DNA from: Desulfotalea psychrophila LSv54
GTDB taxonomy: Bacteria > Desulfobacterota > Desulfobulbia > Desulfobulbales > Desulfocapsaceae
Reading direction: 5' to 3'
Assembly: GCF_000025945.1 (NCBI RefSeq)
Contig: NC_006138.1
Location: 1,380,001 to 1,412,000 of the forward strand
Length of the DNA: 32,000 nt
Shown here: positions 1,183 to 32,000 of the stretch, piece after piece
How the letters are laid out: every line of letters starts with the position of its first letter
Numbering within the stretch: position 1 is the first letter of the stretch
Notes under the pieces: model-generated
The model's database searches: none
What the model was told of the DNA's origin: nothing
What the model saw: only the letters and a program-made list of their open reading frames with translations
Position numbers and translations under genes: made by a program

Positions 1183-2466
1183 TTATAAGGTCGGTTCTGG
1201 CAATGGCAATGCTGTTGTCGGTGATGGTGTTTTTCTGACCTCTGTTGCTAGCTGTGAAACAGAGGCCTTGGGGTGGTAGGTGATGGCCAGTTTCTGTGGC
1301 GCTTCTCCATTGCCGTTTATAAGTTCTGCTGAATAATCGGGACTGGTCGTCTGGATATGGCTGAATTGATCTATGCTGGCACCTCCTGCCAGCATGGGAA
1401 TATCATAGCTGCCGTTGCTGAGGTTATTGTCGGTAAAGGCATAGAGTCTTGCATTTTCGAAGGTGACATCTCTACTGCCACCCGAAATAGTTCCCCTGTA
1501 CTCCCTATCTACCTGGGCCTGATCATTGAACTTCATGGCAAAACCGGTGATATTCACCCCATCTGGGGCAACAACCTGGTATGAACTTTCTTCTGCTCTT
1601 GTGGTGGTAAGATTAATCAGTCCGGAGGAGTGAAGGACTGGCAGAATCGATGAGTCTGACGGAGCCCCTATGTAGATGCCCGTTGCGGCACTTGTGCCGC
1701 CGTTTTCAGCCTCGACGTTGATGGTGCCGCTATTGGTTACATCTCCACGAGTCCAGATGCCTGTTGCCTGACTGCACGCATAGCCGGAAGTTGAGTTGCT
1801 GGTCGCTTTAACGGTAATATCGCCCCTGTTGTTGATATTGCCTTCTGAATCCACAATTCCCAAGGCCTTAGTCCCTCTTTTTGCCCTTGCGGTAAGAGTG
1901 ATATTGCCCTTATTGTATATATTGCCCCCTCCTGAAGTGCTCATCAGTCCGGTGCCCATTATGTCTCTGAAGTTTTTTGTTTCTATTGAGATTGTGCCGT
2001 TGTTTTCAATATCAGCCATGCTGAAAATAGCGGATGCCCAAATGAAGCCAGTGTCAACGCCATTGCTGTGTTGTGCCCTGATACTAATATTGCCCTCGTT
2101 ATTTATGTTGAGTCCGTATACAAGATTTTTTATCCCCCCTGCTCGAGAAGAATCTTCGCTTGTCACCCCTGGGTAATCGAGTCTTATGCTTCCCTGATTG
2201 GTAAAGGTCTGTCCCGTTTCGGAGTCTCCCGTGAGGACAATGGCTATTTGGGGCACTCTGCCACTGTCCGTGATGTTTTCAGTATTGGTGTCCCAGGAAG
2301 ATGCTGTGAGGTATGGTGTAGCCGCTGATGCTAGAGGGGCGGTGATCAAGAGGGCAATGGTGCCGGGGCAGAGGGTGGAGTGGAAAAATCTGGTGGGGAC
2401 TGGCTGCCCATTTTTTGAGGGCCAGGATCTAAGTTTATGTTCCTTTGGCGGAGTGACGCTTTTCAT
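1183..2466 (-). CDS. Secreted beta-helix repeat protein (autotransporter-passenger-like / adhesin-like), function unknown
   Basis: 427-aa ORF. The N-terminus has a signal-peptide-like stretch, TIALLITAPLASAATPY. The protein is rich in G/N/S/T and has about five degenerate 28-32 aa repeats, each carrying an N-x-G-x-I-[ST]-[VIL] motif (NNEGNISI, ENNGTISI, YNKGNITL, NNRGDITV, TNSGTINV). Confidence 0.6.
   Translation of the reverse strand: MKSVTPPKEHKLRSWPSKNGQPVPTRFFHSTLCPGTIALLITAPLASAATPYLTASSWDTNTENITDSGRVPQIAIVLTGDSETGQTFTNQGSIRLDYPGVTSEDSSRAGGIKNLVYGLNINNEGNISIRAQHSNGVDTGFIWASAIFSMADIENNGTISIETKNFRDIMGTGLMSTSGGGNIYNKGNITLTARAKRGTKALGIVDSEGNINNRGDITVKATSNSTSGYACSQATGIWTRGDVTNSGTINVEAENGGTSAATGIYIGAPSDSSILPVLHSSGLINLTTTRAEESSYQVVAPDGVNITGFAMKFNDQAQVDREYRGTISGGSRDVTFENARLYAFTDNNLSNGSYDIPMLAGGASIDQFSHIQTTSPDYSAELINGNGEAPQKLAITYHPKASVSQLATEVRKTPSPTTALPLPEPTL
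1596..2133 (-). repeat. Internal degenerate coding repeats (about 28-32 aa period) of the beta-helix protein
   Basis: The motifs GNISIRAQ / GTISIETK / GNITLTAR / GDITVKAT / GTINVEAE recur at roughly regular spacing in the translation of 1183..2466. Confidence 0.5.
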
Positions 2467-13896: not shown

Positions 13897-14763
13897 ATGG
13901 GACGTGTTTTAGGGACCAAAAAGTTGTTGGGCTGGCTCGCTGTTTTTTGTTCAACGTTTTTTTTCTATTTTGCAACGGTGGTTATTCGGCTGGCAGAAGG
14001 TGAGGTGGATATTGATGTCTCCTATTTTGCCTTCTTTCGCTTTATTTTAGGTTTCATTGTTGTCAGTATTATTATGCTTATAAGCAGGCAGCCGGTGCGT
14101 CCTCGCAGATACCATTTCTTGTTGGGGCGGATGTTGGCAAATACTGCTGCTGTATACTGTTTTTATAAGGCAGCGTCCCTTGGGTCGGTGGCAGAGGCCA
14201 ATATTCTCAATATGACCTACCCCCTCTTTGTGGCCTGTGCCTCATGGTTTCTCTTTAAATCGCAGAGAGATTGGGTGGTGGCGGCTTTGGTTGCCCTTGC
14301 CTTTGTGGGGGTCTGGTTGGTTCTTAACCCGGGTGGTGATTTTTCTGTGAACGGGCAGAGCATCTGGGGTCTTGCCTCTGGTATGCTTGCCGCCGCGGCA
14401 ATTATTTATCTTAATCTCTGTCGCATAGATCACGACTCCAATACCATTCTTTTTGTTCTGTTTGGTTTGGGCTCTATAGTTATGTATACGTTTTTCCATA
14501 ACTATATATTTTGGCCAAATGGTAAGGAGTTCTACTACTTGATGCTCTGTGGTGCTCCTGGCGTTATTGGACAGTATTTGATTACCTTTGGCTTTCGTTT
14601 TGTGACGGCTGTTGAGGGATCGGTTATCTCCTCGTCAAGGATTATGCTTGCAGCCCTGTTGGGGCCAATTATCATTGGTGAGCCGTCCCTGGCCCTATTG
14701 GGATGGTGTGGCGGTTTCTGTATCTTTGTTGCTAATGTGGGCTTGGCTATGCGTAAAAAATAG
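13897..14763 (+). CDS. DMT-superfamily (EamA-like) transporter
   Basis: About 10 TM segments with a two-EamA-repeat architecture. GGAGAGG lies upstream. I prefer ATG 13897 over TTG 13894. Confidence 0.7.
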   Translation: MGRVLGTKKLLGWLAVFCSTFFFYFATVVIRLAEGEVDIDVSYFAFFRFILGFIVVSIIMLISRQPVRPRRYHFLLGRMLANTAAVYCFYKAASLGSVAEANILNMTYPLFVACASWFLFKSQRDWVVAALVALAFVGVWLVLNPGGDFSVNGQSIWGLASGMLAAAAIIYLNLCRIDHDSNTILFVLFGLGSIVMYTFFHNYIFWPNGKEFYYLMLCGAPGVIGQYLITFGFRFVTAVEGSVISSSRIMLAALLGPIIIGEPSLALLGWCGGFCIFVANVGLAMRKK

Positions 14764-14768
14764 TCAAT

Positions 14769-14807
14769 CAGGACGGGCCTCGGCTATTTACGGCTGAGGT
14801 CGTCCTG
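14769..14807. terminator. Long imperfect hairpin between convergent EamA and Nudix genes (possible bidirectional terminator)
   Basis: CAGGACGGGCCTCGGC (14769-14784) pairs with GCTGAGGTCGTCCTG (14793-14807). The stem is about 15 bp with one bulge and an 8-nt loop. No canonical T-run follows directly. Confidence 0.35.
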
Positions 14808-15191
14808 CCATTGGCGTAGACATTTTTGAATACTGCCCAACTCGATAAGTTCATGGGCCCTGTTTAGGGAGACCAGCTTGCGTATGCGTTGGTGCTGTTC
14901 GGGCCATTTCTTGAGAATTTCAGTCACCTCCATGGGGAAAAACTGTATTTTGTATTTGGTTCCATGATGTTGATATTTTATCAGATATGATTTTTTCCCC
15001 TCTATGCATCCGATAATACCCGCCTCCTCAAAGGCCTCCTGAGCAGCTGATTCGATGCAGCTCTTCTTTTTTACCAGATGTCCCTTGGGCAGGATCCAAT
15101 AGCCATTGGTACGACTGGTAATCAAAAAGATCTTTAAAGACTTCTTTGTCTTGATGTACGGAATTACTCCATATTGATTTTTGCTGTTCAT
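14784..15191 (-). CDS. Nudix hydrolase, DIPP/Ddp1-like (candidate polyphosphate / dinucleoside-polyphosphate hydrolase)
   Basis: 135 aa. The Nudix box is GHLVKKKSCIESAAQEAFEEAGIIG. WILPKG and VTEILKKWPE...RIRKLVSLNRAHELI resemble human NUDT3/DIPP1 as I recall it (WIVPGGG..., VTEVLEDWED...RKREWFKIEDAIKVL). Confidence 0.7.
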   Translation of the reverse strand: MNSKNQYGVIPYIKTKKSLKIFLITSRTNGYWILPKGHLVKKKSCIESAAQEAFEEAGIIGCIEGKKSYLIKYQHHGTKYKIQFFPMEVTEILKKWPEQHQRIRKLVSLNRAHELIELGSIQKCLRQWQDDLSRK

Positions 15192-15255
15192 GGCAAATTT
15201 TGTTGGTTGTTCTGGGAATAATTTCTCGCTATATAATTCCTGTTCAGTCAGAGAC

Positions 15256-15996
15256 TTACAGTCTCTTGAGGATGTCTTTCCATACCTCGTTGTAGGCCTG
15301 GGCCACTGAGTTGGACTTGGCGTAGGTCAGAACAGGGGCCCGATGGATACCCATCCGTTCGATATCTGTGCAGGAGGGAATGTCGCTTACCAGAAAATCA
15401 GGATACTGTTGGCGTAGTCTCTTCATGCTCTCCTTATGCAACTTTTTCTGGCGTTGAACCATGGAGAAAAGGGGCACTATTTTTTCTTTTTTGAATCCCT
15501 TTTCCTCAAAAAACTCGTAGAGTTGGCCAAGGGTTCGCTCTGATAGGGTGGTGGGGATCACAGGTATAATTATTTTGTCTGCAACCTTGAATACATTCTC
15601 GGAGAGACGAGAGATATTTGGTGGGCAGTCAAGGATGACAATGTCATACTCACTGTCCACGGCCTTCAGGGTCTGTTTGAGACGGGAGCGGCTCTTTTTC
15701 ATGTTTGCTAGAAAAATATCAAAATCCCGGTAACTCATATTGGCGGGCAGGAGATCAAGGTTGTCGAAGTCGCTGGCTCGAATTGCCTCGGAAAAGCGAT
15801 CAACATTGGTGAAGAAGGCTTGTTCTCTCAGCTCTTTTGAGGGCTTGATCCGAAAATAAAATCCAGAGGCACCCTGGGGGTCAAGATCACAGAGAAGGGT
15901 CCTTTTGCCGCTTTTGGCGCAGGCATAGGCGAGATTAACCGAGGTGGCTGTTTTGCCAACACCACCCTTATTGCTATAACAGGCTATGATTTTCAT
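15256..15996 (-). CDS. Orphan ParA/MinD-type (deviant Walker A) ATPase
   Basis: MKIIACYSNKGGVGKTATSVNLA carries the KGGxxGKT deviant Walker A. CDLDPQG and IVILDCPP are also present. I prefer the ATG at 15994-15996, which has AAGGA 8 nt upstream. This start is 4 nt after the upstream CHAD stop; the track ORF extends to 16026. Confidence 0.85.
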   Translation of the reverse strand: MKIIACYSNKGGVGKTATSVNLAYACAKSGKRTLLCDLDPQGASGFYFRIKPSKELREQAFFTNVDRFSEAIRASDFDNLDLLPANMSYRDFDIFLANMKKSRSRLKQTLKAVDSEYDIVILDCPPNISRLSENVFKVADKIIIPVIPTTLSERTLGQLYEFFEEKGFKKEKIVPLFSMVQRQKKLHKESMKRLRQQYPDFLVSDIPSCTDIERMGIHRAPVLTYAKSNSVAQAYNEVWKDILKRL

Positions 15997-16000
15997 AATA

Positions 16001-17641
16001 CTATCCTTTTGTGCTAAAAAGCTCACTGACGAGATCTGCTGTTCTGGGGCTGTTAAAGTTTTTGAAATTTTTTGTAACCAGAGCCCGTTCCTTTTGTTGG
16101 CAAAGATTGAGCATTGCTCTCAGAGCTCCGATGCCTTCGGCAAGCTTTTTCCCATCCCTTCCCTTAATATCAGCTGTTTCGAGAAATGTCCCCAGGGATA
16201 TCTGTTGGACTGAATAATCGTTAAATCGACCTAAATTGTCCTGGAGCATTTTCAGTGATTTTATAATTGACTTAACGCTGCCCTGGCTAAAAACCGGGGT
16301 GAAAAATTCCAGGAGATAACGAAGCTTTTTGCAGTGGATGCGAAGCTCATGGACGATGGCATCTGCGGTGCTGTCATCGATGCTGGCGGCGATCCTGCAC
16401 ACCTTTTTGTATCTGCTGAAAATCACCTTTTTGGCAAAAAGAGCCGATGGTATTTGAGCCTTCTCTCCCCATATCCACGAGTTGTTGGCAAAGCCATCTT
16501 GGAGGGATTTCATTCGCCTGGTATAGGCCTTGTTCTGTAGTTCCTTACAGAGAGAGCTGTGTAGTAGCTTGCGTTCCCGGGTGAAGGCGGCAAAGAGAAT
16601 TTTAAGGCCCTCATGGGTGCTTTTGGGTACAAGCTTGAAATACAGATCCTTATCAAGCAGATAGACATCTAAATCCCGCAGGCGTCCCGTTGCCTGCATA
16701 ATTTCTGAAAATTCTGTTTTGAGGTAGGCTGTGTCGGCCAGCGAGTATACTCCCTTAAAGAGGCTGATGACAGAGCGTACCTTGCGTAGACTTACCCGGT
16801 AATCATGGAGAAATTCGCTGTCGTAATCGGCTCTGATGCCAATCTCGTTTCTTCTGGCAACGGCAATGAAGGTGTTGATTATTCTGTTGCTTGTCTCCTG
16901 GATGGGGGTCTCGGCTTGCAGGGGGATTGTGGGTTTTGCCTCGTAGGCAAGGCTTGCTATCTGCAGGAGAGAATAGATGTCCTCTTCTTTTTCCTCAACC
17001 GGTGAACTCAGGGCTTCCACTAAAATTTGATGGGCCTCGTCATAACCGCGAAGGGGTTGACTGATGGCTATTTGTACTCTTCTTTTTTTTCGTCTGAGGA
17101 GGGTGCTGCCCAAGCGGGCAACGGTCTTTCCCTCATCGTCGAGCATGGTGTGTGCCTGTAGCTGTAGGGAAATTTCAGTCCGGGGTAGGAATGCCCGGAG
17201 GGGCGAGACTGTTTCCAGTGCTTCTTTTACGGGACCTGCTGGTAGCTCTGGCCAACATTGAAGTTCTATCTTGCCCCGTTGCTCTCGGCTTGCTCCTGTT
17301 TTAAGGTCAATAAGGATGATGGCCTGTTCTGTTTGTAAGAGTATTCTTCCCGTTTTACGCAACTCTTCGTCGAAGGTATCAAGAATCTTGGCCTCTTGTT
17401 TTTCGTCTATCCTGCTCTGCCAACTGTAGGTTGGCTTGAGGGCTTTTTGGATTTTTTTTATGGGTAACTCTGAACGTGCAAGGAGGATATAGGGTTTCAT
17501 GGCTTTTGTTGGTGGCCTTCGTATTAATAAAATATATTGAAGTATTTCTTCTGCTTCGCGGTTGGATCTCTTCAGGACGTCAGTTGAGTTCTTTTTCTCA
17601 AGAGATGAGGTCAGTTTTATTGATTTTTTGTGAAAAAGCAA
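16001..17641 (-). CDS. CHAD domain protein with N-terminal degenerate CYTH-like domain (polyP-granule-associated family)
   Basis: CHAD helices are present: FLHDYRVSLRKVRSVISLF, VHELRIHCKKLRYLLEFF and LQDNLGRFNDY. The N-terminal half has ILDTFDEELRKTGRILLQ and PLRGY, as in CYTH-CHAD proteins such as YgiF, but no EXEXK motif. The start is either 17641 or the internal ATG at 17500. Confidence 0.8.
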   Translation of the reverse strand: MLFHKKSIKLTSSLEKKNSTDVLKRSNREAEEILQYILLIRRPPTKAMKPYILLARSELPIKKIQKALKPTYSWQSRIDEKQEAKILDTFDEELRKTGRILLQTEQAIILIDLKTGASREQRGKIELQCWPELPAGPVKEALETVSPLRAFLPRTEISLQLQAHTMLDDEGKTVARLGSTLLRRKKRRVQIAISQPLRGYDEAHQILVEALSSPVEEKEEDIYSLLQIASLAYEAKPTIPLQAETPIQETSNRIINTFIAVARRNEIGIRADYDSEFLHDYRVSLRKVRSVISLFKGVYSLADTAYLKTEFSEIMQATGRLRDLDVYLLDKDLYFKLVPKSTHEGLKILFAAFTRERKLLHSSLCKELQNKAYTRRMKSLQDGFANNSWIWGEKAQIPSALFAKKVIFSRYKKVCRIAASIDDSTADAIVHELRIHCKKLRYLLEFFTPVFSQGSVKSIIKSLKMLQDNLGRFNDYSVQQISLGTFLETADIKGRDGKKLAEGIGALRAMLNLCQQKERALVTKNFKNFNSPRTADLVSELFSTKG

Positions 17642-17666
17642 AGGCTTTTTGGCTTCAAAGTATTTT

Positions 17667-17694
17667 TTGTCAAAAGGGTGTATAGTGCTAATAT
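17667..17694 (+). promoter_or_regulatory. Near-consensus sigma70 promoter with extended -10, upstream of ppk1
   Basis: TTGTCA (17667-17672) is followed by a 16-nt spacer, then TGc-TAATAT (TG at 17686-17687, -10 at 17689-17694). Confidence 0.5.
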
Positions 17695-17894
17695 GGGCCT
17701 TTGTCTTGCACTTTCTCAGCTTTGGGCTGTTAGGTTGTTTCGGTCTGTTGATGGAAAATATGAACGAGGTGAGTTGTTTTTAATAGGAAGAGAGGGAGGG
17801 GCTATGGCTCGGCAGAAACAAGGAAGGCAAAAGGTTGGAATAGAGAAGTCGACGTTGATTTGAGTTCCCCCAGTGGTTTCTGAATCGTGAAGTT

Positions 17895-20003
17895 ATGTGG
17901 CTTAAATTTAATGGCAGGGTCCTTGCTGAGGCCATGGATTCCCGTAATCCTCTGTTGGCAAGGGTGTTCTTTTTTGCCGTGGTTGATTCGAATCTGGATG
18001 AGTTTTTTATGAAGCGCATTGGTCGGTTGAAGCAGCAGGTCAGCGCCGGGGTAAAGACCCTTAGTGTTGATGCTCTCCTGCCTCAGGAACAGATTGATGT
18101 CTGTACCCCACTTATCCAGGATATAATAAAGAGGCAGTATACTCTGGGGCGTGAACTTCAGGCGGGACTGGCCAGTGAAGGGATTGTTGTTGCCAGTTAT
18201 GCAGGGCTTCCTCGCGAACAACGTGCCTGGTTGGATAATTTTTTTATCGATCAGGTTTTTCCTCTCTTGACTCCTCAGGGAGTTGATCCCGCTCACCCTT
18301 TTCCTTTTATCTCTAACCTTTCCATAAATCTATTGATTAGTGTCCGTTATCCGGGCAGTGAACATGTCTATCGTAATCGGGTAAAGATGCCGGTCAATGA
18401 GGTGATCCCTCGTTTCGTTAGAGTTGGTAGTGATGATGTTTATATCCCCCTTGAGGATCTGGTCAGTAATAACCTGCAAATGCTTCTGCCCGGTATGGAG
18501 ATAGACAGTGTTGATGTCTTTCGCGTTACTAGAAATGCTATGACAGGGCCGAGTGGGGGGCAGGTAAATGATCTTTTGCATATGATTGAGTCTGCTCTGC
18601 GCGAGAGGAAATTTGCCGAGATTGTCCGTCTGGAAGTGGGGCGGGGGATCAGTTCTCTAAATCGGGGGATGCTTGCCGCTGAGCTGGGGATTGACGAGGA
18701 AAAAGATGTTGTTGAGTTGGATGATCTGCTGGGTAAGGGATCACTGATGGAAATTGCTAAAATAGATAGAGATCAGCTTCATTTTTCTCCGCATCATTTG
18801 GTTAATAACCCTGATCTCATAGAGGACGATCCAAATATTTTTCATGTACTGCGGGAGAAGAAGGCTGTTTTACTTCAGCATCCCTATGAATCGTTTGAAA
18901 CATCCGTTGAGCGTTTTCTGGATGAGGCGAGTCAGGATCCCAAGGTATTGGCCATAAAGATGACCCTCTATCGTACGGCAAATGACTCCAGAATTATTGA
19001 GTATTTAATAGAGGCATCGCAGAATGGTAAGCAGGTTGCGGTGGTGATGGAACTCAAGGCACGATTTGATGAGTCAGCCAATATTAGATGGGCGGGTTAT
19101 TTAGAGCAGGCAGGGATCCATGTGACCTATGGTGTTCTTGGGCTGAAGACACACTCTAAGGTGATCTTTGTGGTGCGTAAAGATTATGATGGGATTCGTC
19201 GTTATGCTCACATCGGTACGGGTAATTATCATTCGGGAACGGCAAGAGGCTACTGTGATCTTGGTTTGTTGACCTGCGATCCTGATATCGTCTCTGATCT
19301 TACCGAGTTTTTTAATTATCTGACCACGGGCTATACCCCTATCCGTCGTTATAAAAAGCTCCTGCCCTCCCCCCGGATTCTCAAGAAGGCATTGCTCTCA
19401 AAGATTAACAGAGAGATTGCCGTTCAGGAGAAGGGAGGCGTGGGGCTTATTCAGTTGAAAACCAACGCTCTGGAAGACCGTGACCTGACAGAGGCGCTCT
19501 ATAGGGCCTCGCAGGCAGGGGTGCATGTTGATCTCATTGTTCGGGATTCATGTCGTCTCCGCCCCGGAATTGAGGGGCTTTCTGAAAATGTTCGGGTGAT
19601 CTCTATTGTGGGGAGGTTTCTGGAGCATAGCCGACTTTTTTATTTTAGAAATAACGGCGCGGAAGAGTACTATATTGGCTCTGCAGATCTCATGACCAGG
19701 AATTTGGAGAGGCGGGTGGAGGCCTGTGTGCCCGTAGAACTTCCTCACCTTCAGGCGCAGTTGCGGGAGATTCTTGATCTACAGTTGGCTAATAGTAGGA
19801 ATGTCTGGGAGATGGACTCCGGGGGTAACTATCTGCAGAGGACAACCAAGGGCAAGAAAAAATCAGAGACGCTTTCTGTGCATCAGCTCTTGATTGATAG
19901 CGCGGAAAAACGGGACGCCGCAGGTAAGCTTAAGTTGGCCAAGAAGCGTAGCCAAAAACAGATAAAAATTAGATCCAGATCGTCCCCTTCTTCGGAGAGG
20001 TGA
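17895..20003 (+). CDS. ppk1: Polyphosphate kinase 1 (5' end anomalous, see findings)
   Basis: 702-aa ORF. WLKFNGRVLAEAMDSRNPLLARVFFFAVVDSNLDEFFMKRIG is the PPK N-domain motif. The two PLD-like HxK motifs are GLKTHSKV and RFLEHSRLFYF. Confidence 0.92.
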   Translation: MWLKFNGRVLAEAMDSRNPLLARVFFFAVVDSNLDEFFMKRIGRLKQQVSAGVKTLSVDALLPQEQIDVCTPLIQDIIKRQYTLGRELQAGLASEGIVVASYAGLPREQRAWLDNFFIDQVFPLLTPQGVDPAHPFPFISNLSINLLISVRYPGSEHVYRNRVKMPVNEVIPRFVRVGSDDVYIPLEDLVSNNLQMLLPGMEIDSVDVFRVTRNAMTGPSGGQVNDLLHMIESALRERKFAEIVRLEVGRGISSLNRGMLAAELGIDEEKDVVELDDLLGKGSLMEIAKIDRDQLHFSPHHLVNNPDLIEDDPNIFHVLREKKAVLLQHPYESFETSVERFLDEASQDPKVLAIKMTLYRTANDSRIIEYLIEASQNGKQVAVVMELKARFDESANIRWAGYLEQAGIHVTYGVLGLKTHSKVIFVVRKDYDGIRRYAHIGTGNYHSGTARGYCDLGLLTCDPDIVSDLTEFFNYLTTGYTPIRRYKKLLPSPRILKKALLSKINREIAVQEKGGVGLIQLKTNALEDRDLTEALYRASQAGVHVDLIVRDSCRLRPGIEGLSENVRVISIVGRFLEHSRLFYFRNNGAEEYYIGSADLMTRNLERRVEACVPVELPHLQAQLREILDLQLANSRNVWEMDSGGNYLQRTTKGKKKSETLSVHQLLIDSAEKRDAAGKLKLAKKRSQKQIKIRSRSSPSSER

Positions 20004-20088: not shown

Positions 20089-21186
20089 TTAGGAGATCTC
20101 TTCGCCAATGCCAAAGAGAAGTTGGTATAAAAAAACTGAATAGGCTAGGACGGCTACGATGGCGACCGGAGCAAAGAAATATCCTAAGGGGCAGAGTATG
20201 ACCACGGTGATCCAGTGAAGGGCTATGGTGGGTTTTGTTTGAAGTTGCAGGGGAAACTCTCTATGGCGTGCTGCTACGGCAAGTCCACTGAGGTTCCAGC
20301 CGTAGAGAGCCATGAAGGCATGCATGCGCAGTAGTGGCAGGCTATTTTCCGGGTTATAGAGTGGCGAAAATTCCAGGAGGATATAGATGATGCCGGTAAT
20401 TGAGGTGCAGAGAAGAAAGAGGATGCCCGAGAGGAGAAAGTTTTTTTGCTGGGAGGGAATACCGAGGGATATATAGAGAAAAAAAACCAGACCTACCGTG
20501 ATAAAGAGGGTGGAGGCGATGATCACCTGGGGAATAAAGAGGCCGGCCAGAATAAAGATAAAAAAGATAATGACTCCCAGGTTGATTATCCAGAAGGAGA
20601 TCTCCTTAAGTGTTCTGGCAAATGATGTTCTGGCCTTTTGCATCAGAGAGAAAATAACAGACATGCTTATGAGGGAGAGGGGAAAGGAAAATCCGAGGAA
20701 GAAGGTATCAAGGGTCAGTTTTGGGATGGTGAAATAGTGGAGGTAGATGGCGTTGAGAATAACAAGAGAGGATATGATGAGGGCCAGGGAGAGACAGAGC
20801 AGGGCAGCTTGGTGAAATTTTTTGGCAACGGGCTCACTGCTGCGCAGCATTTCTACAGGGATGCAGTGGCCGAGGTGTAACACCCGTACCCGTTCGGTGA
20901 TAACGGCAAGTCCCAGTGGCAGGAAAAGTGTTGGTGGATACCATTCCAAGAAGGCTGTAAGGGCAAAGAGAAGGGAGCCAAGGCAGTAGAGTTTGCCGTG
21001 TGTTGAGAGTCGCTTTTGTCCCTCCGTGAAGTAGATGAGTAGGGTGCCGCCAACGCAGAGATTAAAGAGGAAGATGTGCAGTCTTTCAAAGTTGAGCACC
21101 TGGGGCGGGACAATATGGTGCATAAAACCACAGGCCAGGGCTGTAGTAAGGAGCAGGAGGAGTAAAAGCTTAAATCGTAGACTCAT
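20089..21186 (-). CDS. Polytopic integral membrane protein, unknown function (about 10-12 TM)
   Basis: 365 aa and very hydrophobic throughout. The start ATG overlaps the stop of the upstream gene (ATGA at 21183-21186). Confidence 0.6.
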   Translation of the reverse strand: MSLRFKLLLLLLLTTALACGFMHHIVPPQVLNFERLHIFLFNLCVGGTLLIYFTEGQKRLSTHGKLYCLGSLLFALTAFLEWYPPTLFLPLGLAVITERVRVLHLGHCIPVEMLRSSEPVAKKFHQAALLCLSLALIISSLVILNAIYLHYFTIPKLTLDTFFLGFSFPLSLISMSVIFSLMQKARTSFARTLKEISFWIINLGVIIFFIFILAGLFIPQVIIASTLFITVGLVFFLYISLGIPSQQKNFLLSGILFLLCTSITGIIYILLEFSPLYNPENSLPLLRMHAFMALYGWNLSGLAVAARHREFPLQLQTKPTIALHWITVVILCPLGYFFAPVAIVAVLAYSVFLYQLLFGIGEEIS

Positions 21187-22565
21187 CTGTACCGTCCCAG
21201 TTGAATTTTCAAACTCTTTTTGAGTTCAGGGTATTGAAAGCAAAATCCTGACTCTACCAGTTTCTTACTTGATACATGGCAATTTGCCAGGGCAATCTCT
21301 CTGGCCATCTCGCCGTACAAAAACGTGAGAAAGCTGGCGGGCACCCTGGGGAGAAGGGGGCGTTTTTTTATTTGGGCAATGGTGGCAAGTAGCTCCTCAT
21401 TTCTCACCGGCTGTGGGGAAACGATATTTATCGGTCCTCTGATCTCCGGGCAGACAAGGCAGTGGAGGATTGCCGCTAGCATATCGTTGATGTCTATCCA
21501 ACTGGTGTACTGGCGGCCGTTACCAAAGCTTCTTGGTAGGGCTATTTTGCCGATTTGCAAGAGCCTTTTGAGGGCACCGCCGCGGTGGCTCAGGGTCACT
21601 CCCATTCGTAACATGGCCGTGCGGATGCCGGTGATCTCTGCCTGAGCGGCCTCTTTCTCCCAGACCTTGCATACCTGGGAGATAAAATCTGAGCCGGCCT
21701 CTTGTTCTTCCGAGAGGTTTTGCTCGGGACTGTCACCATAGTAGCCCGTGGCCGAGGCAGAGAGGAATACCTGTGGCGGCCGTGGGAGTTTGGCCATAGC
21801 TGCACAGAGTAAGCGGGTGCCATTTTTTCTGCTCCTGAGGACCCTCTCTTTTTTTCCCCTGCTCCAGCGGCTCAGACCAATTTGTTCGCCAGCAAGATGG
21901 ATAATGGCATCTATTTCTGGAATGGCATTGCTGTCAATTTCTCCCAGGGCAGGGTTCCAGTAGATCTCCTTGTCTCCCTCTACTCCTCTTCTTACAAGTC
22001 TGAATACCCGGTGTCCGCCACTCTCCAGAAAGGGTACCAGCTCGCGCCCTAGTGTTCCGCTAGCTCCGCTGATGAGGATGCGTAGAGGTGGCCAGCTATA
22101 CCTTTGGTGTCTTGCCAGGTCGTGTCGAAGAATTTCATGGCGGTAGGTGAAGGTTCTTGTCAGCTCTTTTTTTACCGCCCCATGGACAAATGAGGGGAGG
22201 AATTCATGGACGGGCAGGCGGTACTGCACCAGGTCTTCCATGCTGGCGCCGTTTTCCTCATTTTGAAAGAGGTGTCTGTGCTGCCAGAGGGAAAAGGGTC
22301 CCTCCGTCTGTCTATCCTCAAACATTTTCCCTGGTATGGCCTGCAGATGCTCTGCTTTGACGGTAAAGGCTATGGAGGCTATGCGCATGCGTATGGTGGT
22401 CTTGCCTCCCCTGCCTAAGCCTCCACTTCGTTCGAGTACCTGTGCCTCCTGCCAGGGGGGGATGAGGCGTTCAAGCGCTCCCGGTCTGGCATGCCAGGCA
22501 TATATATATTGAGCATCCACGGGGTAGATAGATTTTTTTTGTAGTTTATTTCGTTTGTCTGTCAT
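21183..22565 (-). CDS. Fusion protein: N-terminal SRPBCC/START-like domain plus C-terminal SDR-type NAD(P)-binding epimerase-like domain (YfcH / DUF1731-like)
   Basis: 460 aa. The Rossmann motif ILISGASGTLGRELVPFLESGGHRVFRLVRR starts around residue 163. The C-terminal end has a DUF1731-like tail (SSKKLVESGFCFQYPELKKSL). The N-terminal ~150 aa resemble the SRPBCC ligand-binding fold found fused in this family. Confidence 0.65.
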   Translation of the reverse strand: MTDKRNKLQKKSIYPVDAQYIYAWHARPGALERLIPPWQEAQVLERSGGLGRGGKTTIRMRIASIAFTVKAEHLQAIPGKMFEDRQTEGPFSLWQHRHLFQNEENGASMEDLVQYRLPVHEFLPSFVHGAVKKELTRTFTYRHEILRHDLARHQRYSWPPLRILISGASGTLGRELVPFLESGGHRVFRLVRRGVEGDKEIYWNPALGEIDSNAIPEIDAIIHLAGEQIGLSRWSRGKKERVLRSRKNGTRLLCAAMAKLPRPPQVFLSASATGYYGDSPEQNLSEEQEAGSDFISQVCKVWEKEAAQAEITGIRTAMLRMGVTLSHRGGALKRLLQIGKIALPRSFGNGRQYTSWIDINDMLAAILHCLVCPEIRGPINIVSPQPVRNEELLATIAQIKKRPLLPRVPASFLTFLYGEMAREIALANCHVSSKKLVESGFCFQYPELKKSLKIQLGRYR

Positions 22566-24870: not shown

Positions 24871-25686
24871 TTGTTAATCATTCCAGAGATTCAGGCCAGA
24901 CAGTCGCTTACCTGGCTGGCAGCGGATGCTCCGCCCATGTGTATTTGCAGGGGCGCCTATCGTGGTCAGGGCTATCTGGACCTTATTCAGGGACAGATAA
25001 CAGAAAAGTTATCCTCCTACGATGTTGATAAAAATAGCGCGAATATATCCAGACACTATGAGCTTTGGAAGGATGGGGCGGAGGTCTGCTCAATAGGGTA
25101 TAAGACGGCAGACCGACAGAAGATAGCCTATTACTCTCAGCCCATCCTTCGTACCTTACCTGCTGTTTTGGTGGTTAGCAGGGATAAGGCAGCGCTTTTC
25201 TCGGGTCTGCAGGTGATTAGTTTAAAGAAGCTTTTGCAGAGGGGAGATATTGTCCTTGGTCGCAGTCATGGTCGCTCCTACGGTGGTCCTCTTGATAAAA
25301 TTTTTAATCAGTATGGTACCAAAAAGAATATTTTTAATTATGAGGGTGATGGCATTAGTCGCAATTTCTTTGAAATGCTGGCCTTAAATCGCATTGATGC
25401 GATTGTCTGTCAGCCCAGTGAGCTTATCTATTTGACCAAGAGGCTTGGCTTAAGCGGTCAATTTTTAACCTTTGATATTGAGGAAAATCGTGGGACTGTA
25501 GAGGCGAATTCTGTCTATGTGATATGTAGTAAAACGGATTGGGGGAAGAGGGTGATCTCCCGAGTTGACAAGCTGGTGGCTGATCCGCAAATAAAGCTAC
25601 ATTTTCATTATGCCTATGAGTATTGGCTCAATAGCAAATATCTTGAGCTTTACTCTGGCAATGCGGCGAAAACCTATGCCCATTGA
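24871..25686 (+). CDS. Periplasmic substrate-binding-like protein (SBP family 3-like, TIGR02285-like); N-terminal signal peptide is out of frame upstream
   Basis: SLTWLAADAPPMCICRGAYRGQGYLD...CSIGYKTADRQKIAYYSQP matches the pattern of SBP_bac_3-like orphan binding proteins. The first canonical start in frame is TTG 24871. The signal-peptide n-region is encoded in another frame upstream of a T9 run. Confidence 0.6.
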   Translation: MLIIPEIQARQSLTWLAADAPPMCICRGAYRGQGYLDLIQGQITEKLSSYDVDKNSANISRHYELWKDGAEVCSIGYKTADRQKIAYYSQPILRTLPAVLVVSRDKAALFSGLQVISLKKLLQRGDIVLGRSHGRSYGGPLDKIFNQYGTKKNIFNYEGDGISRNFFEMLALNRIDAIVCQPSELIYLTKRLGLSGQFLTFDIEENRGTVEANSVYVICSKTDWGKRVISRVDKLVADPQIKLHFHYAYEYWLNSKYLELYSGNAAKTYAH

Positions 25687-30392: not shown

Positions 30393-32000
30393 GTGACTAG
30401 CAGAGAGAAAAAAACAGAGAGTGAATCCATGCTTTGGATGTCAGGTAATGAGGCTATCGCCCTTGGAGCCTACGAGGCAGGCGTGAAGGTGGCCTCAGGT
30501 TATCCCGGGACACCTTCAACGGAAATTATGGAGAATTTGTCCACCTATGACTCGGTTTATACCGAGTGGGCGCCCAATGAAAAGGTAGGTCTTGAGGTTG
30601 CCATTGGTGCCTGCTTTGCCGGAGCTCGGAGTCTGGCGACCATGAAGCATGTCGGGGTGAATGTGGCAGCAGATCCACTGCTTACCGTTGCTTACACGGG
30701 TGTTCGTGGTGGCTTGGTGGTGGTCAGTGCCGATGATCCTGAGATGCATTCCTCGCAGAATGAGCAGGATAATAGAAACTTTGCCCTTCATGCTAAGATA
30801 CCCTGTATAGAACCCTCCGAACCTGCCGAGGCAAAGGCCATGATGAGGCTTGCCTACGAGTTGAGTGAAGATCTTGATACTCCCATTATGTTTCGCATTA
30901 CTACCAGGGTCGCCCATGTGAAGGGTGTGGTCGAGAGGGGAACTCGGCTAGAGGGGCCTGTTGCCTGTGGCCTTGAAAAGGTGCCGAGCAAGATGGTTAT
31001 GCTTCCCGGTCTGGCCAAAAAACGTCGTGTCTTTGTTGAAGAGAGGATGGACCGTTGTAAGACCATTGCCGAGACGGCTGATTTTAACCGGATAGAAGAG
31101 GGTAGTACTAAACGTGGATTTATTACTGCGGGTGTTGCCTATCTCTATGTTAAGGAGGCCTTTCCACAGGACTCTGTGCTTAAATTGGGGATGACCTGGC
31201 CTCTTCCGGAGAAGAAGATCCGTGAGTTTGCCGCTTCGGTTGATGAACTTTATGTGGTGGAAGAGCTTGACCCATTTTTGGAAACGCAGATCAAGGCCAT
31301 GGGGATCAGCTGTCACGGTAAGGATCTTATTCCTAATCAGGGTGAGCTCAATACGGCCATTGTCCGTAAGGCGATCACCGGTTTAACGGATCTTGAGCTT
31401 TTTGAAGCTGTCGATCTGCCCATGCGCCCGCCTAATATGTGTGCCGGCTGTCCGCACCGTGGCATTTTCTTTAACCTGTCGCGGATGAATGTCTTTGTCT
31501 CGGGCGATATTGGTTGTTACACCCTGGGATTTTTACCACCGCTCTCGGCGATGGATGCCTGTGTTTGTATGGGCGCATCGGTACCCATGGCTCACGGTAT
31601 GGCCAAGGCCCTTGGTGAGGGGAGCCATGATAAGGTTGTTTCGGTGATCGGTGATTCCACCTTTATCCATTCAGGCATAACTGGCCTTATTAACACGGTA
31701 TATAATAACTCTGCCTCAACCCTTATTATTCTTGATAACCGCATTACGGCAATGACGGGTCAGCAGCAGAATCCTGCCACCGGTTATAATATCAAGGGTG
31801 AGGCGGCCAACGCTCTGGATCTTGAGGCGCTCTGTCGAGCCGTCGGGGTAAAGCATGTTTATACCGTTGACCCCCATGATATTATTAAAACACGTGAGGT
31901 GATGAAGGAGGCAGTTGCTCTTGATGAACCTTCGGTGGTTATTTCCCGGGCACCCTGTGTCCTCATACCGGAAATGAAGAGCCGTAAGACTGTTTCCTAT
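30393..32000 (+). CDS. iorA: Indolepyruvate:ferredoxin oxidoreductase alpha subunit, 5' portion (3' end outside window)
   Basis: This ORF is absent from the track because it has no stop in the window. My hand translation gives SGNEAIALGAYEAGVKVASGYPGTPSTEIMENL, MCAGCPHRG, and the TPP motifs GDIGCYTLG and GDSTFIHSGITGLIN. GTG 30393 has AGGAG 5 nt upstream. In-frame ATGs at 30429 and 30438 are alternatives. Confidence 0.85.
   Translation, partial: MTSREKKTESESMLWMSGNEAIALGAYEAGVKVASGYPGTPSTEIMENLSTYDSVYTEWAPNEKVGLEVAIGACFAGARSLATMKHVGVNVAADPLLTVAYTGVRGGLVVVSADDPEMHSSQNEQDNRNFALHAKIPCIEPSEPAEAKAMMRLAYELSEDLDTPIMFRITTRVAHVKGVVERGTRLEGPVACGLEKVPSKMVMLPGLAKKRRVFVEERMDRCKTIAETADFNRIEEGSTKRGFITAGVAYLYVKEAFPQDSVLKLGMTWPLPEKKIREFAASVDELYVVEELDPFLETQIKAMGISCHGKDLIPNQGELNTAIVRKAITGLTDLELFEAVDLPMRPPNMCAGCPHRGIFFNLSRMNVFVSGDIGCYTLGFLPPLSAMDACVCMGASVPMAHGMAKALGEGSHDKVVSVIGDSTFIHSGITGLINTVYNNSASTLIILDNRITAMTGQQQNPATGYNIKGEAANALDLEALCRAVGVKHVYTVDPHDIIKTREVMKEAVALDEPSVVISRAPCVLIPEMKSRKTVSY

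Follow-up and report, generated by a model that had tools for sequence, protein, structure and literature searches.

Organisation of the locus

We analysed a 32 kb stretch of DNA from Desulfotalea psychrophila LSv54, here called the window, and all coordinates are counted within it. In the list of open reading frames (ORFs), ppk1, encoding polyphosphate kinase 1 (PPK1), lies on the plus strand and is divergent from three minus-strand genes, which follow each other as a CHAD gene, a ParA-like ATPase gene and a DIPP-like Nudix hydrolase gene. An original prediction had described ppk1 as facing three tightly packed minus-strand genes, together a candidate system for organising polyphosphate (polyP) granules, and all four ORFs were found where it had placed them. 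The CHAD and ParA-like genes proved to be a conserved pair that recurs among polyP genes, and we consider here whether this pair could organise polyP granules. The features of the locus, with the evidence for each in brackets, are as follows.

17895 to 20003, plus strand: ppk1, polyphosphate kinase 1, 702 amino acids (aa) (Pfam, NCBIfam)
17501 to 17894, no strand: divergent intergenic region between ppk1 and the CHAD operon, 394 nucleotides (nt) (set by the revised CHAD start)
16001 to 17500, minus strand: gene of the two-domain CHAD protein, 499 aa (Pfam CHAD, AlphaFold2 (AF2) model, homologue lengths)
17006 to 17500, minus strand: N-terminal beta-rich domain, aa 1-165, with a putative degenerate fold like that of CYTH/triphosphate tunnel metalloenzymes (TTM) (Foldseek)
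16004 to 16900, minus strand: CHAD domain, aa 201-499, putative polyP-binding module (fold and sequence match to the Chlorobium tepidum CHAD protein, CtCHAD)
15994 to 16010, minus strand: translational-coupling junction with Shine-Dalgarno (SD) sequence, CHAD stop and ParA ATG (read from the sequence)
15256 to 15996, minus strand: ParA/MinD-family ATPase, 246 aa, DP1251 (Pfam, fold, tree)
15949 to 15972, minus strand: deviant Walker A motif NKGGVGKT, aa 9-16, with signature lysine K10 (30-sequence alignment)
14784 to 15191, minus strand: DIPP/DDP1-like Nudix hydrolase, 135 aa, last gene of the operon (Pfam, structure matches)
15015 to 15083, minus strand: Nudix box, aa 37-59, GHLVKKKSCIESAAQEAFEEAGI (translation)

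The CHAD-ParA junction reads AAA GGA TAG TATT ATG. An SD sequence (AAGGA) falls within the final two CHAD codons, 7 nt 5' of the ParA ATG, which itself lies 4 nt past the CHAD stop, and the Nudix ATG follows 64 nt past the ParA stop. This is the spacing that had been described for the operon. The CHAD gene had been given as 16001-17641, and of this the ORF stands, but its start most likely lies elsewhere. At full length the ORF encodes 546 aa from a TTG at 17641, as also in the deposited annotation (a 100% identical D. psychrophila entry). Since the homologues are 497-520 aa long and their alignment begins at residue 47/48 of the long ORF, the ATG at 17500 is most likely the start, and the divergent intergenic region therefore measures 394 nt.

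Elsewhere the window carries housekeeping genes (cysteine synthase, MetW, RNase III, ABC-F, MOSC, EamA and a hybrid kinase), and domain searches found no polyP genes in the window other than the operon and ppk1. A ParB domain was found in none of the window's ORFs by Pfam and related domain searches, a small partner ORF was present nowhere in the 32 kb, and a search of 14700-18000 for parS-like arrays or iterons gave only short two-copy repeats.

The CHAD-ParA pair is conserved as a unit

Neighbourhoods were surveyed in two scans. A genome scan with ParA as seed gave 80 loci (59-76% identity), and a metagenome scan with an independent CHAD-alignment seed gave another 80 (30-52% CHAD identity), 73 of which had at least 150 nt downstream. 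A CHAD gene was located directly upstream of ParA, on the same strand, in all 80 ParA-seeded loci, and ParA was the next gene downstream in 70 of the 73 testable CHAD-seeded loci, with a ParA identity of 42-79%. Adjacency of the two genes is thus a property far beyond this genome, and the gene arrangement far exceeds chance. The ParA-seeded loci belong to Desulfobulbales, Pontiella (Kiritimatiellota), Gamma-, Alpha- and Betaproteobacteria and to metagenome-assembled genomes (MAGs) of Gemmatimonadota, Myxococcota and Verrucomicrobia. Counting isolates and well-labelled records, CHAD-ParA coupling is found in at least six named phyla, and in more if the MAG labels are trusted.

Among 144 intact pairs, 76 overlap (49 of them by 4 nt, of the ATGA type), 59 are separated by 0-30 nt and 9 by more than 30 nt, i.e. 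135 either overlap or lie at most 30 nt apart. The identities of CHAD and ParA to the window pair co-vary (r=0.87), and the ParA-like protein is 60-79% identical to homologues across phyla. We made a neighbour-joining (NJ) tree of 90 de-replicated CHAD-linked ParAs, their nearest unlinked ParAs and two Soj/ParA structures. The CHAD-linked ParAs were monophyletic with respect to the others in 70 of 100 NJ bootstraps, so they form a clade of their own, apart from chromosomal and plasmid ParAs. Unlinked ParAs at 33-42% identity (Halomonas, Pontibacter, Marinobacter and sphingomonads) had no CHAD, CYTH or Nudix neighbours. Two candidate in-frame CHAD-ParA fusions, at loci L035 and L048, were rejected because an in-frame stop is present.

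Two further observations were made in these neighbourhoods. An orphan ParA used as a tree outgroup, one of the closest unlinked ParAs with 39% identity to that of the window (L084:4001-4747, plasmid pMAQU02 of Marinobacter nauticus VT8), adjoins genes of polyhydroxybutyrate metabolism (phbB, acetyl-CoA transferase), which hints at further ParAs linked to storage granules. In 12 Desulfopila-like loci (e.g. L022, L027, L032) a 136-aa zinc-ribbon and PilZ gene is convergent with ParA, about 150-320 nt after it, and in two further loci (L047, L049) this gene is found upstream; possibly it provides a link to cyclic di-GMP.

PolyP genes recur around the pair

The identity of ppk1 was borne out by matches of its product to all four Pfam domains (PP_kinase_N, PP_kinase, PP_kinase_C_1 and PP_kinase_C) and to NCBIfam TIGR03705 (699 bits, cut-off 466) and NF003921 (897 bits). 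The Nudix protein matched Pfam NUDIX above its cut-off (E=8.4e-6), and the label DIPP-like suits it well, as its best solved-structure match was yeast DDP1 (6.5e-10), followed by human DIPP1-3, and the top 19 such matches were all DDP1, DIPP1-3 or a DIPP-type chain (2duk). The Nudix consensus is GX5EX7REUXEEXGU. In the window's Nudix box, whose core is QEAFEEAG, Q stands in place of the R of this consensus and K in place of its first E, and the predicted catalytic EE is kept. DDP1/DIPP enzymes are counted among the eukaryotic polyphosphatases (PMC6537752).

Within the available flanks, at least one PPK1, CYTH or Nudix gene was found in 60 of 80 genome and 45 of 80 metagenome loci. PPK1 genes were located beside the CHAD-ParA cassette in 28/80 and 17/80 loci, respectively, in several orientations. 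An intact CYTH gene followed ParA in 28-29 loci per set, and Nudix homologues followed ParA, or the ParA-CYTH pair, in 16/80 genome and 13/80 metagenome loci. The stand-alone CYTH neighbours carry EIERKF, in which the ExExK motif is intact, and match Pfam CYTH (2e-6). The polyP enzyme genes are arranged around CHAD-ParA in at least four different orders. In Desulfobulbales ppk1 is divergent from CHAD-ParA; Gammaproteobacteria and Rhodobacteraceae have CHAD-ParA-CYTH, with or without Nudix; Pontiella has CHAD-ParA-Nudix; and divergent metagenomic lineages have CYTH-Nudix-PPK1-CHAD-ParA or CHAD-ParA-PPK1. On a Paracoccus aestuarii plasmid, the NCBI annotation of the cassette reads hypothetical, CHAD, AAA ATPase, CYTH and NUDIX.

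The crystallised CtCHAD construct comprises residues 208-522 of a 522-aa protein (PMC6537752). A Chlorobaculum protein 98% identical to CtCHAD is encoded in an operon of PPK1, a 265-aa repeat protein, CHAD and ParA; this ParA has the motifs of the family and shares 48% identity with that of the window. Used as a full-length stand-in for CtCHAD, the Chlorobaculum protein is 31.6% identical to the window CHAD protein over 510 aa. As a protein nearly identical to CtCHAD is thus encoded beside a ParA of the clade, the ParA-linked subfamily includes a protein with demonstrated polyP binding. The 265-aa protein between PPK1 and the CHAD gene (L170:5183-5980 and L171:5184-5981) consists of CSGNxLxSLxGxP repeats and is leucine-rich-repeat-like, with no Pfam match on record.

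Taken together, the conserved adjacency, the recurrent polyP-enzyme context and the kept contact residues of CtCHAD (see below) give strong support to the link with polyP, and it is very probable that the ATPase functions in polyP biology. We infer strongly that CHAD and ParA are expressed and inherited together, as one unit connected with polyP metabolism.

The CHAD protein combines a putative degenerate TTM-like domain with a predicted polyP-binding domain

The CHAD call was confirmed by Pfam (CHAD, E=1.5e-52). The AF2 model of the protein (predicted local distance difference test (pLDDT) 92.7, predicted TM-score 0.85) has three parts: a beta-rich N-terminal domain (N-domain, aa 1-165), an acidic linker (aa 166-200, isoelectric point (pI) 4.1) and the helical CHAD domain (aa 201-499). 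In its predicted domain order, TTM-like and then CHAD, the protein resembles both E. coli YgiF, a TTM-CHAD tripolyphosphatase, and CtCHAD (Chlorobium tepidum Q8KE09). The whole model matches YgiF (5a60) in Foldseek with E=3.4e-7, but the TM-score is as low as 0.27-0.31, and the two proteins therefore differ in how their domains are arranged. Unlike in YgiF, the TTM-like domain of the window protein lacks ExExK and a Pfam CYTH signal, and we know of no ParA neighbour of YgiF.

The N-domain had been called CYTH-like, which is supported by the predicted fold and not by the sequence. Foldseek matched it to the CYTH/TTM structures 3sy3, 2gfg, 5a65 and 5a67 with probability 1.0 (E about 1e-3, TM-score 0.45-0.53, root mean square deviation (rmsd) 6-7 Å). 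By sequence, Pfam gave no match to the domain even at E<=10, and an hhalign comparison with 27 true CYTH proteins encoded nearby was likewise negative (probability 0.7%). The ExExK motif is absent from the domain, where the N-terminus reads MKPYILLARS with a family consensus of MxPFxYxLPS, and across 147 homologues the domain has conserved motifs of its own (DxFD, LR, KT..R and RGY). A search of 1.84 billion representatives with the N-domain gave 127 matches, many of them shorter and apparently fragments; most full-length matches measure about 475-570 aa and carry the domain at the N-terminus or close to it. The N-domain would thus have a degenerate CYTH/TTM-like fold, as judged from the predicted structure, and it is probably not a phosphatase, since both ExExK and a Pfam CYTH signal are missing.

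The CHAD domain superimposes closely on the CtCHAD-polyP complex (6qva, TM-score 0.94, rmsd 1.8 Å, Foldseek) and matches 3e0s/6qv7 by sequence with E=5e-51. In CtCHAD, mutation of the polyP-contact residues H253, R256, R260, R296, R418/Y419, R438 and K441 lowers binding (PMC6537752). They correspond to H232, R235, R239, R275, R394/Y395, K414 and K417 in the window protein, and all of these are invariant or nearly so. There are strong grounds to expect that the CHAD protein binds polyP via the conserved basic pore of this domain. Localisation to polyP granules in vivo has been reported for other CHAD proteins, outside this two-domain subfamily.

The ParA-like ATPase

The description of the second gene product, which is 100% identical to DP1251, as a deviant-Walker-A ParA/MinD ATPase was confirmed. 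It matched Pfam AAA_31 (E=1.8e-42), CbiA (3.5e-15) and ParA (1.2e-12), with a weak match to MipZ; an NCBIfam equivalog cut-off was reached by none of the ParA-like, CHAD and Nudix proteins. NKGGVGKT (K10, K15), D37/D39 of Walker A' and D123 of Walker B are invariant in the 30-member family alignment. In a hidden Markov model (HMM) alignment, residues 3-244 align with residues 5-252 of M. xanthus ParA (8ray), and Soj proteins align as well. The AF2 model (pLDDT 73) has 8ray, 2bek, 1wcv and 6iub as its top Foldseek matches (TM-score 0.74-0.77, E down to 7e-17). These data point strongly to a functional ParA-type P-loop protein.

The weak MipZ match would fit a reversed logic, in which the granule, via CHAD, serves as a landmark and the ATPase positions or inhibits division or chromosome loci in the manner of MipZ or PomZ. 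We regard this as highly unlikely, as no division or chromosome-segregation gene recurs in the 160 neighbourhoods and only polyP genes do.

MinD-type membrane targeting was also considered. The last helix of the model (aa 230-245) reaches the C-terminus with nothing beyond it, the last ~10 residues are unconserved (KDILKRL, EELQKKL, EIECLI) and give no MinD-type C-terminal amphipathic membrane-targeting helix, and there are no min genes near the ParA-like gene. A family-specific and near-invariant segment, GFYFR-KPSK-L----FF, is found at aa 45-62 (window 15811-15864) and has no counterpart in Soj/ParA. It falls in the helix-H4 region and is modelled at pLDDT <50. In canonical ParAs the helix-H4 region is part of the partner-binding site, and because of this location the segment is a candidate specificity determinant.

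A ribbon-helix-helix gene in part of the family

In about one third of the loci (29/80 genome, 16/80 metagenome), a gene of 50-70 aa is located directly upstream of the CHAD gene (e.g. L022:4299-4460, L059:4302-4481, L035:4289-4468, L083:4299-4487). In its product a lysine-rich tail precedes KKNTSLRL..KTLKALKIRAIEEDTSVQKIIE.LI..YL, a ribbon-helix-helix (RHH) pattern, and its matches to Pfam RHH_1 and ParG are weak and under their cut-offs. When the 62-aa Paracoccus protein was used as tblastn query, the palindrome TGACGTCA was found shortly upstream in 39 of 39 detected RHH loci (38 exact), as compared to an occurrence of 6.5% in random 200-nt windows. The RHH protein is probably an autoregulator. 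A six-frame HMM search did not find the gene in the window, and it is also absent from Pontiella and Chlorobaculum; it therefore stands outside the invariant core. The 47 additional N-terminal residues of the long CHAD ORF are not a remnant of the RHH gene (HMM score -0.6). Only one-mismatch copies of the palindrome occur in the window, TGACGTCC (17575-17582) and TGACCTCA (17606-17613) on the minus strand, 82 and 113 nt upstream of the CHAD ATG, and these could be chance occurrences or a relic operator.

In its architecture, the RHH gene together with TGACGTCA resembles the type Ib ParB analogues ParG and omega. Type Ib systems (ParF/ParG of TP228, delta/omega of pSM19035) likewise have a small Soj-like ParA, and the lysine-rich flexible N-terminal tail of the RHH protein and the palindromic site upstream add to the likeness in the third of the related loci that has them. 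Some copies of the cassette are also carried on Paracoccus plasmids, and the nearest unlinked relatives of the ATPase include plasmid ParAs. The ATPase might hence be an ordinary DNA-partition ParA, either chromosomal, plasmid-borne or left from a decayed type Ib system with its RHH protein, beside which CHAD is a chance or hitch-hiking neighbour. This is nevertheless the least probable of all the explanations weighed here. The CHAD gene always stands between the RHH gene and ParA and is the only constant partner, whereas the RHH gene is missing from most of the family, the window, Pontiella and Chlorobaculum included. Each site is a single palindrome, with at most 1-2 degenerate copies next to it, instead of a centromere built of a long iteron array. 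Chromosomal copies are in the majority, and that of the window has a housekeeping context with no ParB; no ParB was present in the annotated related loci either. The cassette on the Paracoccus plasmid sits among metabolic genes, and the clade is separate.

A candidate module for organisation of polyP granules

We propose that the window encodes a dedicated polyP-granule module with the coupled CHAD-ParA pair as its invariant core, where the CHAD protein is the adaptor of the ParA and spatial organisation is the output; at present we see this proposal as about evenly balanced between right and wrong. In such a module, PPK1 would make the polymer, and the CHAD protein would bind it through the CHAD basic pore and mark the granule surface. 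This step is extended to the window protein from the polyP binding shown for the CtCHAD construct. Synthesis of the ParA-like ATPase would be coordinated with that of the CHAD protein. In each cycle the ATPase would bind a polyanionic matrix as a dimer with ATP and leave it again as a monomer, and the CHAD protein, by its N-terminal domain or its linker, would be the granule-bound partner of the ATPase. The output would be an ATP-driven separation of granules, their spacing along the nucleoid and their distribution to daughter cells, analogous to McdA/McdB and carboxysomes. The DIPP-like Nudix hydrolase would trim or degrade the polymer, as might a stand-alone active CYTH/TTM enzyme in other lineages. 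Genes of ParA/MinD ATPases typically adjoin those of their cargo, and there is precedent for assigning cargo by neighbourhood (bioRxiv 10.1101/2022.06.09.495121).

Several observations weigh against this proposal. In the AF2 model the CHAD protein begins with a beta-strand and lacks a disordered, basic peptide at the N-terminus such as ParA partners typically have. That there is neither a ParB, a parS array nor a small partner beside the ATPase, as the original prediction had stated, is correct for the window, but for the family the part on the small partner fails, given the RHH gene in about one third of the loci. Three of the 73 CHAD-seeded loci (L111:1-1888, L113 and L122) have no ParA, so the CHAD protein can work without it, and as one of them is CHAD-CYTH-Nudix, the polyP-enzyme part of the operon can persist lacking the ATPase. 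In Synechococcus elongatus the spacing of polyP is reported to be independent of its only ParA (2026 study), and other spacing mechanisms therefore exist. Finally, the Soj DNA-binding motif P-[RK]-N-V-[RK]-L-S-E aligns to P207-S-C-T-D211-I-E213 of the window ParA, and S/F and D/E occupy the two basic positions in all CHAD-linked ParAs, that of Chlorobaculum included. The exchange R238E abolishes DNA binding of M. xanthus ParA, and our alignment places this residue in the Soj motif. With both basic residues of the motif replaced, canonical nucleoid binding by the CHAD-linked ParA is not assured.

The CHAD-linked ParAs are also unusually basic, with a pI of 9.4-10.2 and a net charge of +11 to +23, as compared to a pI of 5.2-8.8 in a small comparison set of five ParAs, and the median pI is still 9.4 in the divergent half of the clade. 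Together with the replaced Soj arginines this means that the matrix could be DNA or polyP. In the latter case the basic ATP-dimer would bind polyP itself, and turnover and release stimulated by CHAD would control coalescence, size and number of granules, or the ATPase would bridge granule and nucleoid. It agrees with this idea that every operon product is basic, as expected of polyP binders. On the other hand, a high pI fits equally well with DNA binding via other residues, and the lysines equivalent to those of HpSoj are partly kept in the family (K188, K227/228). As polyP as matrix is also without precedent, we find this variant improbable. If true, this would be an ATP-fuelled regulator of size, number and coalescence of an inorganic condensate, and the first case of a ParA/MinD ATPase whose patterning matrix is a polymer other than nucleic acid or membrane.

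The missing DNA-binding arginines could likewise be explained if the ATPase is tied to polyP as a nucleotide-dependent switch of granule biogenesis or turnover and not as a positioning motor. The ATP-bound dimer would then recruit, scaffold or gate PPK1, Nudix or CYTH on the CHAD-coated surface. BcsQ and FlhG are SIMIBI/ParA-like ATPases that regulate machine assembly, and both are among the structural neighbours of the ParA-like model. The accessory genes encode enzymes (PPK1, CYTH/TTM, DIPP-like Nudix) rather than structural or DNA-binding factors, and the TTM-like domain fused to CHAD is degenerate while an intact CYTH follows ParA in the 28-29 loci of each set, which suggests a regulated enzyme hand-over. 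Still, the nearest relatives in sequence and fold are Soj/ParA segregation ATPases. Moreover, the enzyme genes vary, and 20 of the 80 genome loci have none within the flanks, whereas CHAD alone is constant, which argues that the partner of the ATPase is a granule-binding protein and not an enzyme. Such a switch is possible, in our opinion, but rather doubtful, both as a general role and in the form of a dimer that acts on these enzymes.

Relation to known systems

The proposed CHAD-ParA module for granule positioning is most readily compared with McdA/McdB. Like the latter, it would consist of a small ParA/MinD ATPase and a cargo-bound partner encoded beside the genes of a non-DNA, nucleoid-associated inclusion, and the proposed output, equidistant spacing and inheritance, is similar. 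The cargo here would instead be an inorganic polymer granule, and the partner, which in McdB is small and disordered, would be a folded TTM-like/CHAD protein of 499 aa, encoded upstream and coupled. In contrast to McdA, the ATPase keeps the signature lysine, and the sequence match between them is weak (6non/6noo, E about 1e-8). With AlgP of Pseudomonas aeruginosa the module would have in common the cargo and the presumed outcome, i.e. evenly spaced, non-coalescing and nucleoid-associated polyP granules; AlgP (PMC9239181), however, lacks an ATPase, acts as a histone H1-like tether that binds DNA, and has no homology to the proteins described here.

Gene maps of Acidithiobacillus contain a conserved folD-ppk-parA-CYTH/CHAD cluster, where parA is labelled as a plasmid or chromosome partition gene with no role given (PMC10892726, PMC6416229). 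This is the same kind of neighbourhood. According to reviews from 2024-2025, AlgP, a passive tether, is the sole known polyP-spacing factor, and the factors elsewhere and the energy requirement are unknown (PMC13052382). In agreement with the original prediction, which knew of no characterised ParA system for polyP granules, a full-text literature search to August 2026 found no paper that assigns a ParA/MinD ATPase to them.

The CHAD-ParA pair is therefore, in our view, the first strong candidate for an ATP-driven organiser of polyP granules, and it plausibly extends the cargo-positioning theme of ParA/MinD ATPases to a cargo and a class of partner that are both new. For the question of how polyP granules are spaced and inherited, and whether this costs energy, the cassette offers a widespread and genetically testable candidate, in which a polyP-binding protein is paired with an ATPase of the family responsible for placing chromosomes, plasmids and carboxysomes. 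The enigmatic CHAD "phosins" would gain a function to test, the degenerate TTM domain could be explained as a possible ATPase-interaction module, and CtCHAD, already crystallised, is placed inside a CHAD-ParA system. The carriers include sulfur-cycle Desulfobulbales, marine Rhodobacteraceae and green sulfur bacteria, and possibly, judging by the published maps, biomining Acidithiobacillus, in which polyP is of environmental and industrial relevance.

Further features of the window

Three ORFs of the window had no Pfam match at E<=1e-4: 1183-2466 (minus strand, 427 aa), 24871-25686 (plus strand, 271 aa) and 30516-30917 (minus strand, 133 aa). Next to ppk1, a 365-aa ORF with no Pfam or NCBIfam match (20089-21186, minus strand) overlaps by 4 nt the gene at 21183-22565 (minus strand), which encodes a 460-aa protein with SRPBCC/polyketide-cyclase, epimerase and DUF1731 domains. 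This 365-aa/460-aa pair is conserved (about 62% and 48% identity) in many Desulfobulbales loci, where it adjoins ppk1, or the CHAD gene where ppk1 was undetected.

Promoter and terminator scans of the locus gave results at chance level only. A sigma-70-like site directed toward ppk1 (TTGTCA-16-TAATAT, 17667-17694) occurs at a frequency no higher than chance. The intergenic region between ppk1 and CHAD also contains a direct repeat, ATTTTTTGTGAAAA and ATTTTTTGTCAAAA (17623-17636 and 17662-17675), with the copies 39 nt apart, and the second copy (17662-17675) overlaps the -35-like TTGTCA of this sole promoter-like site facing ppk1.

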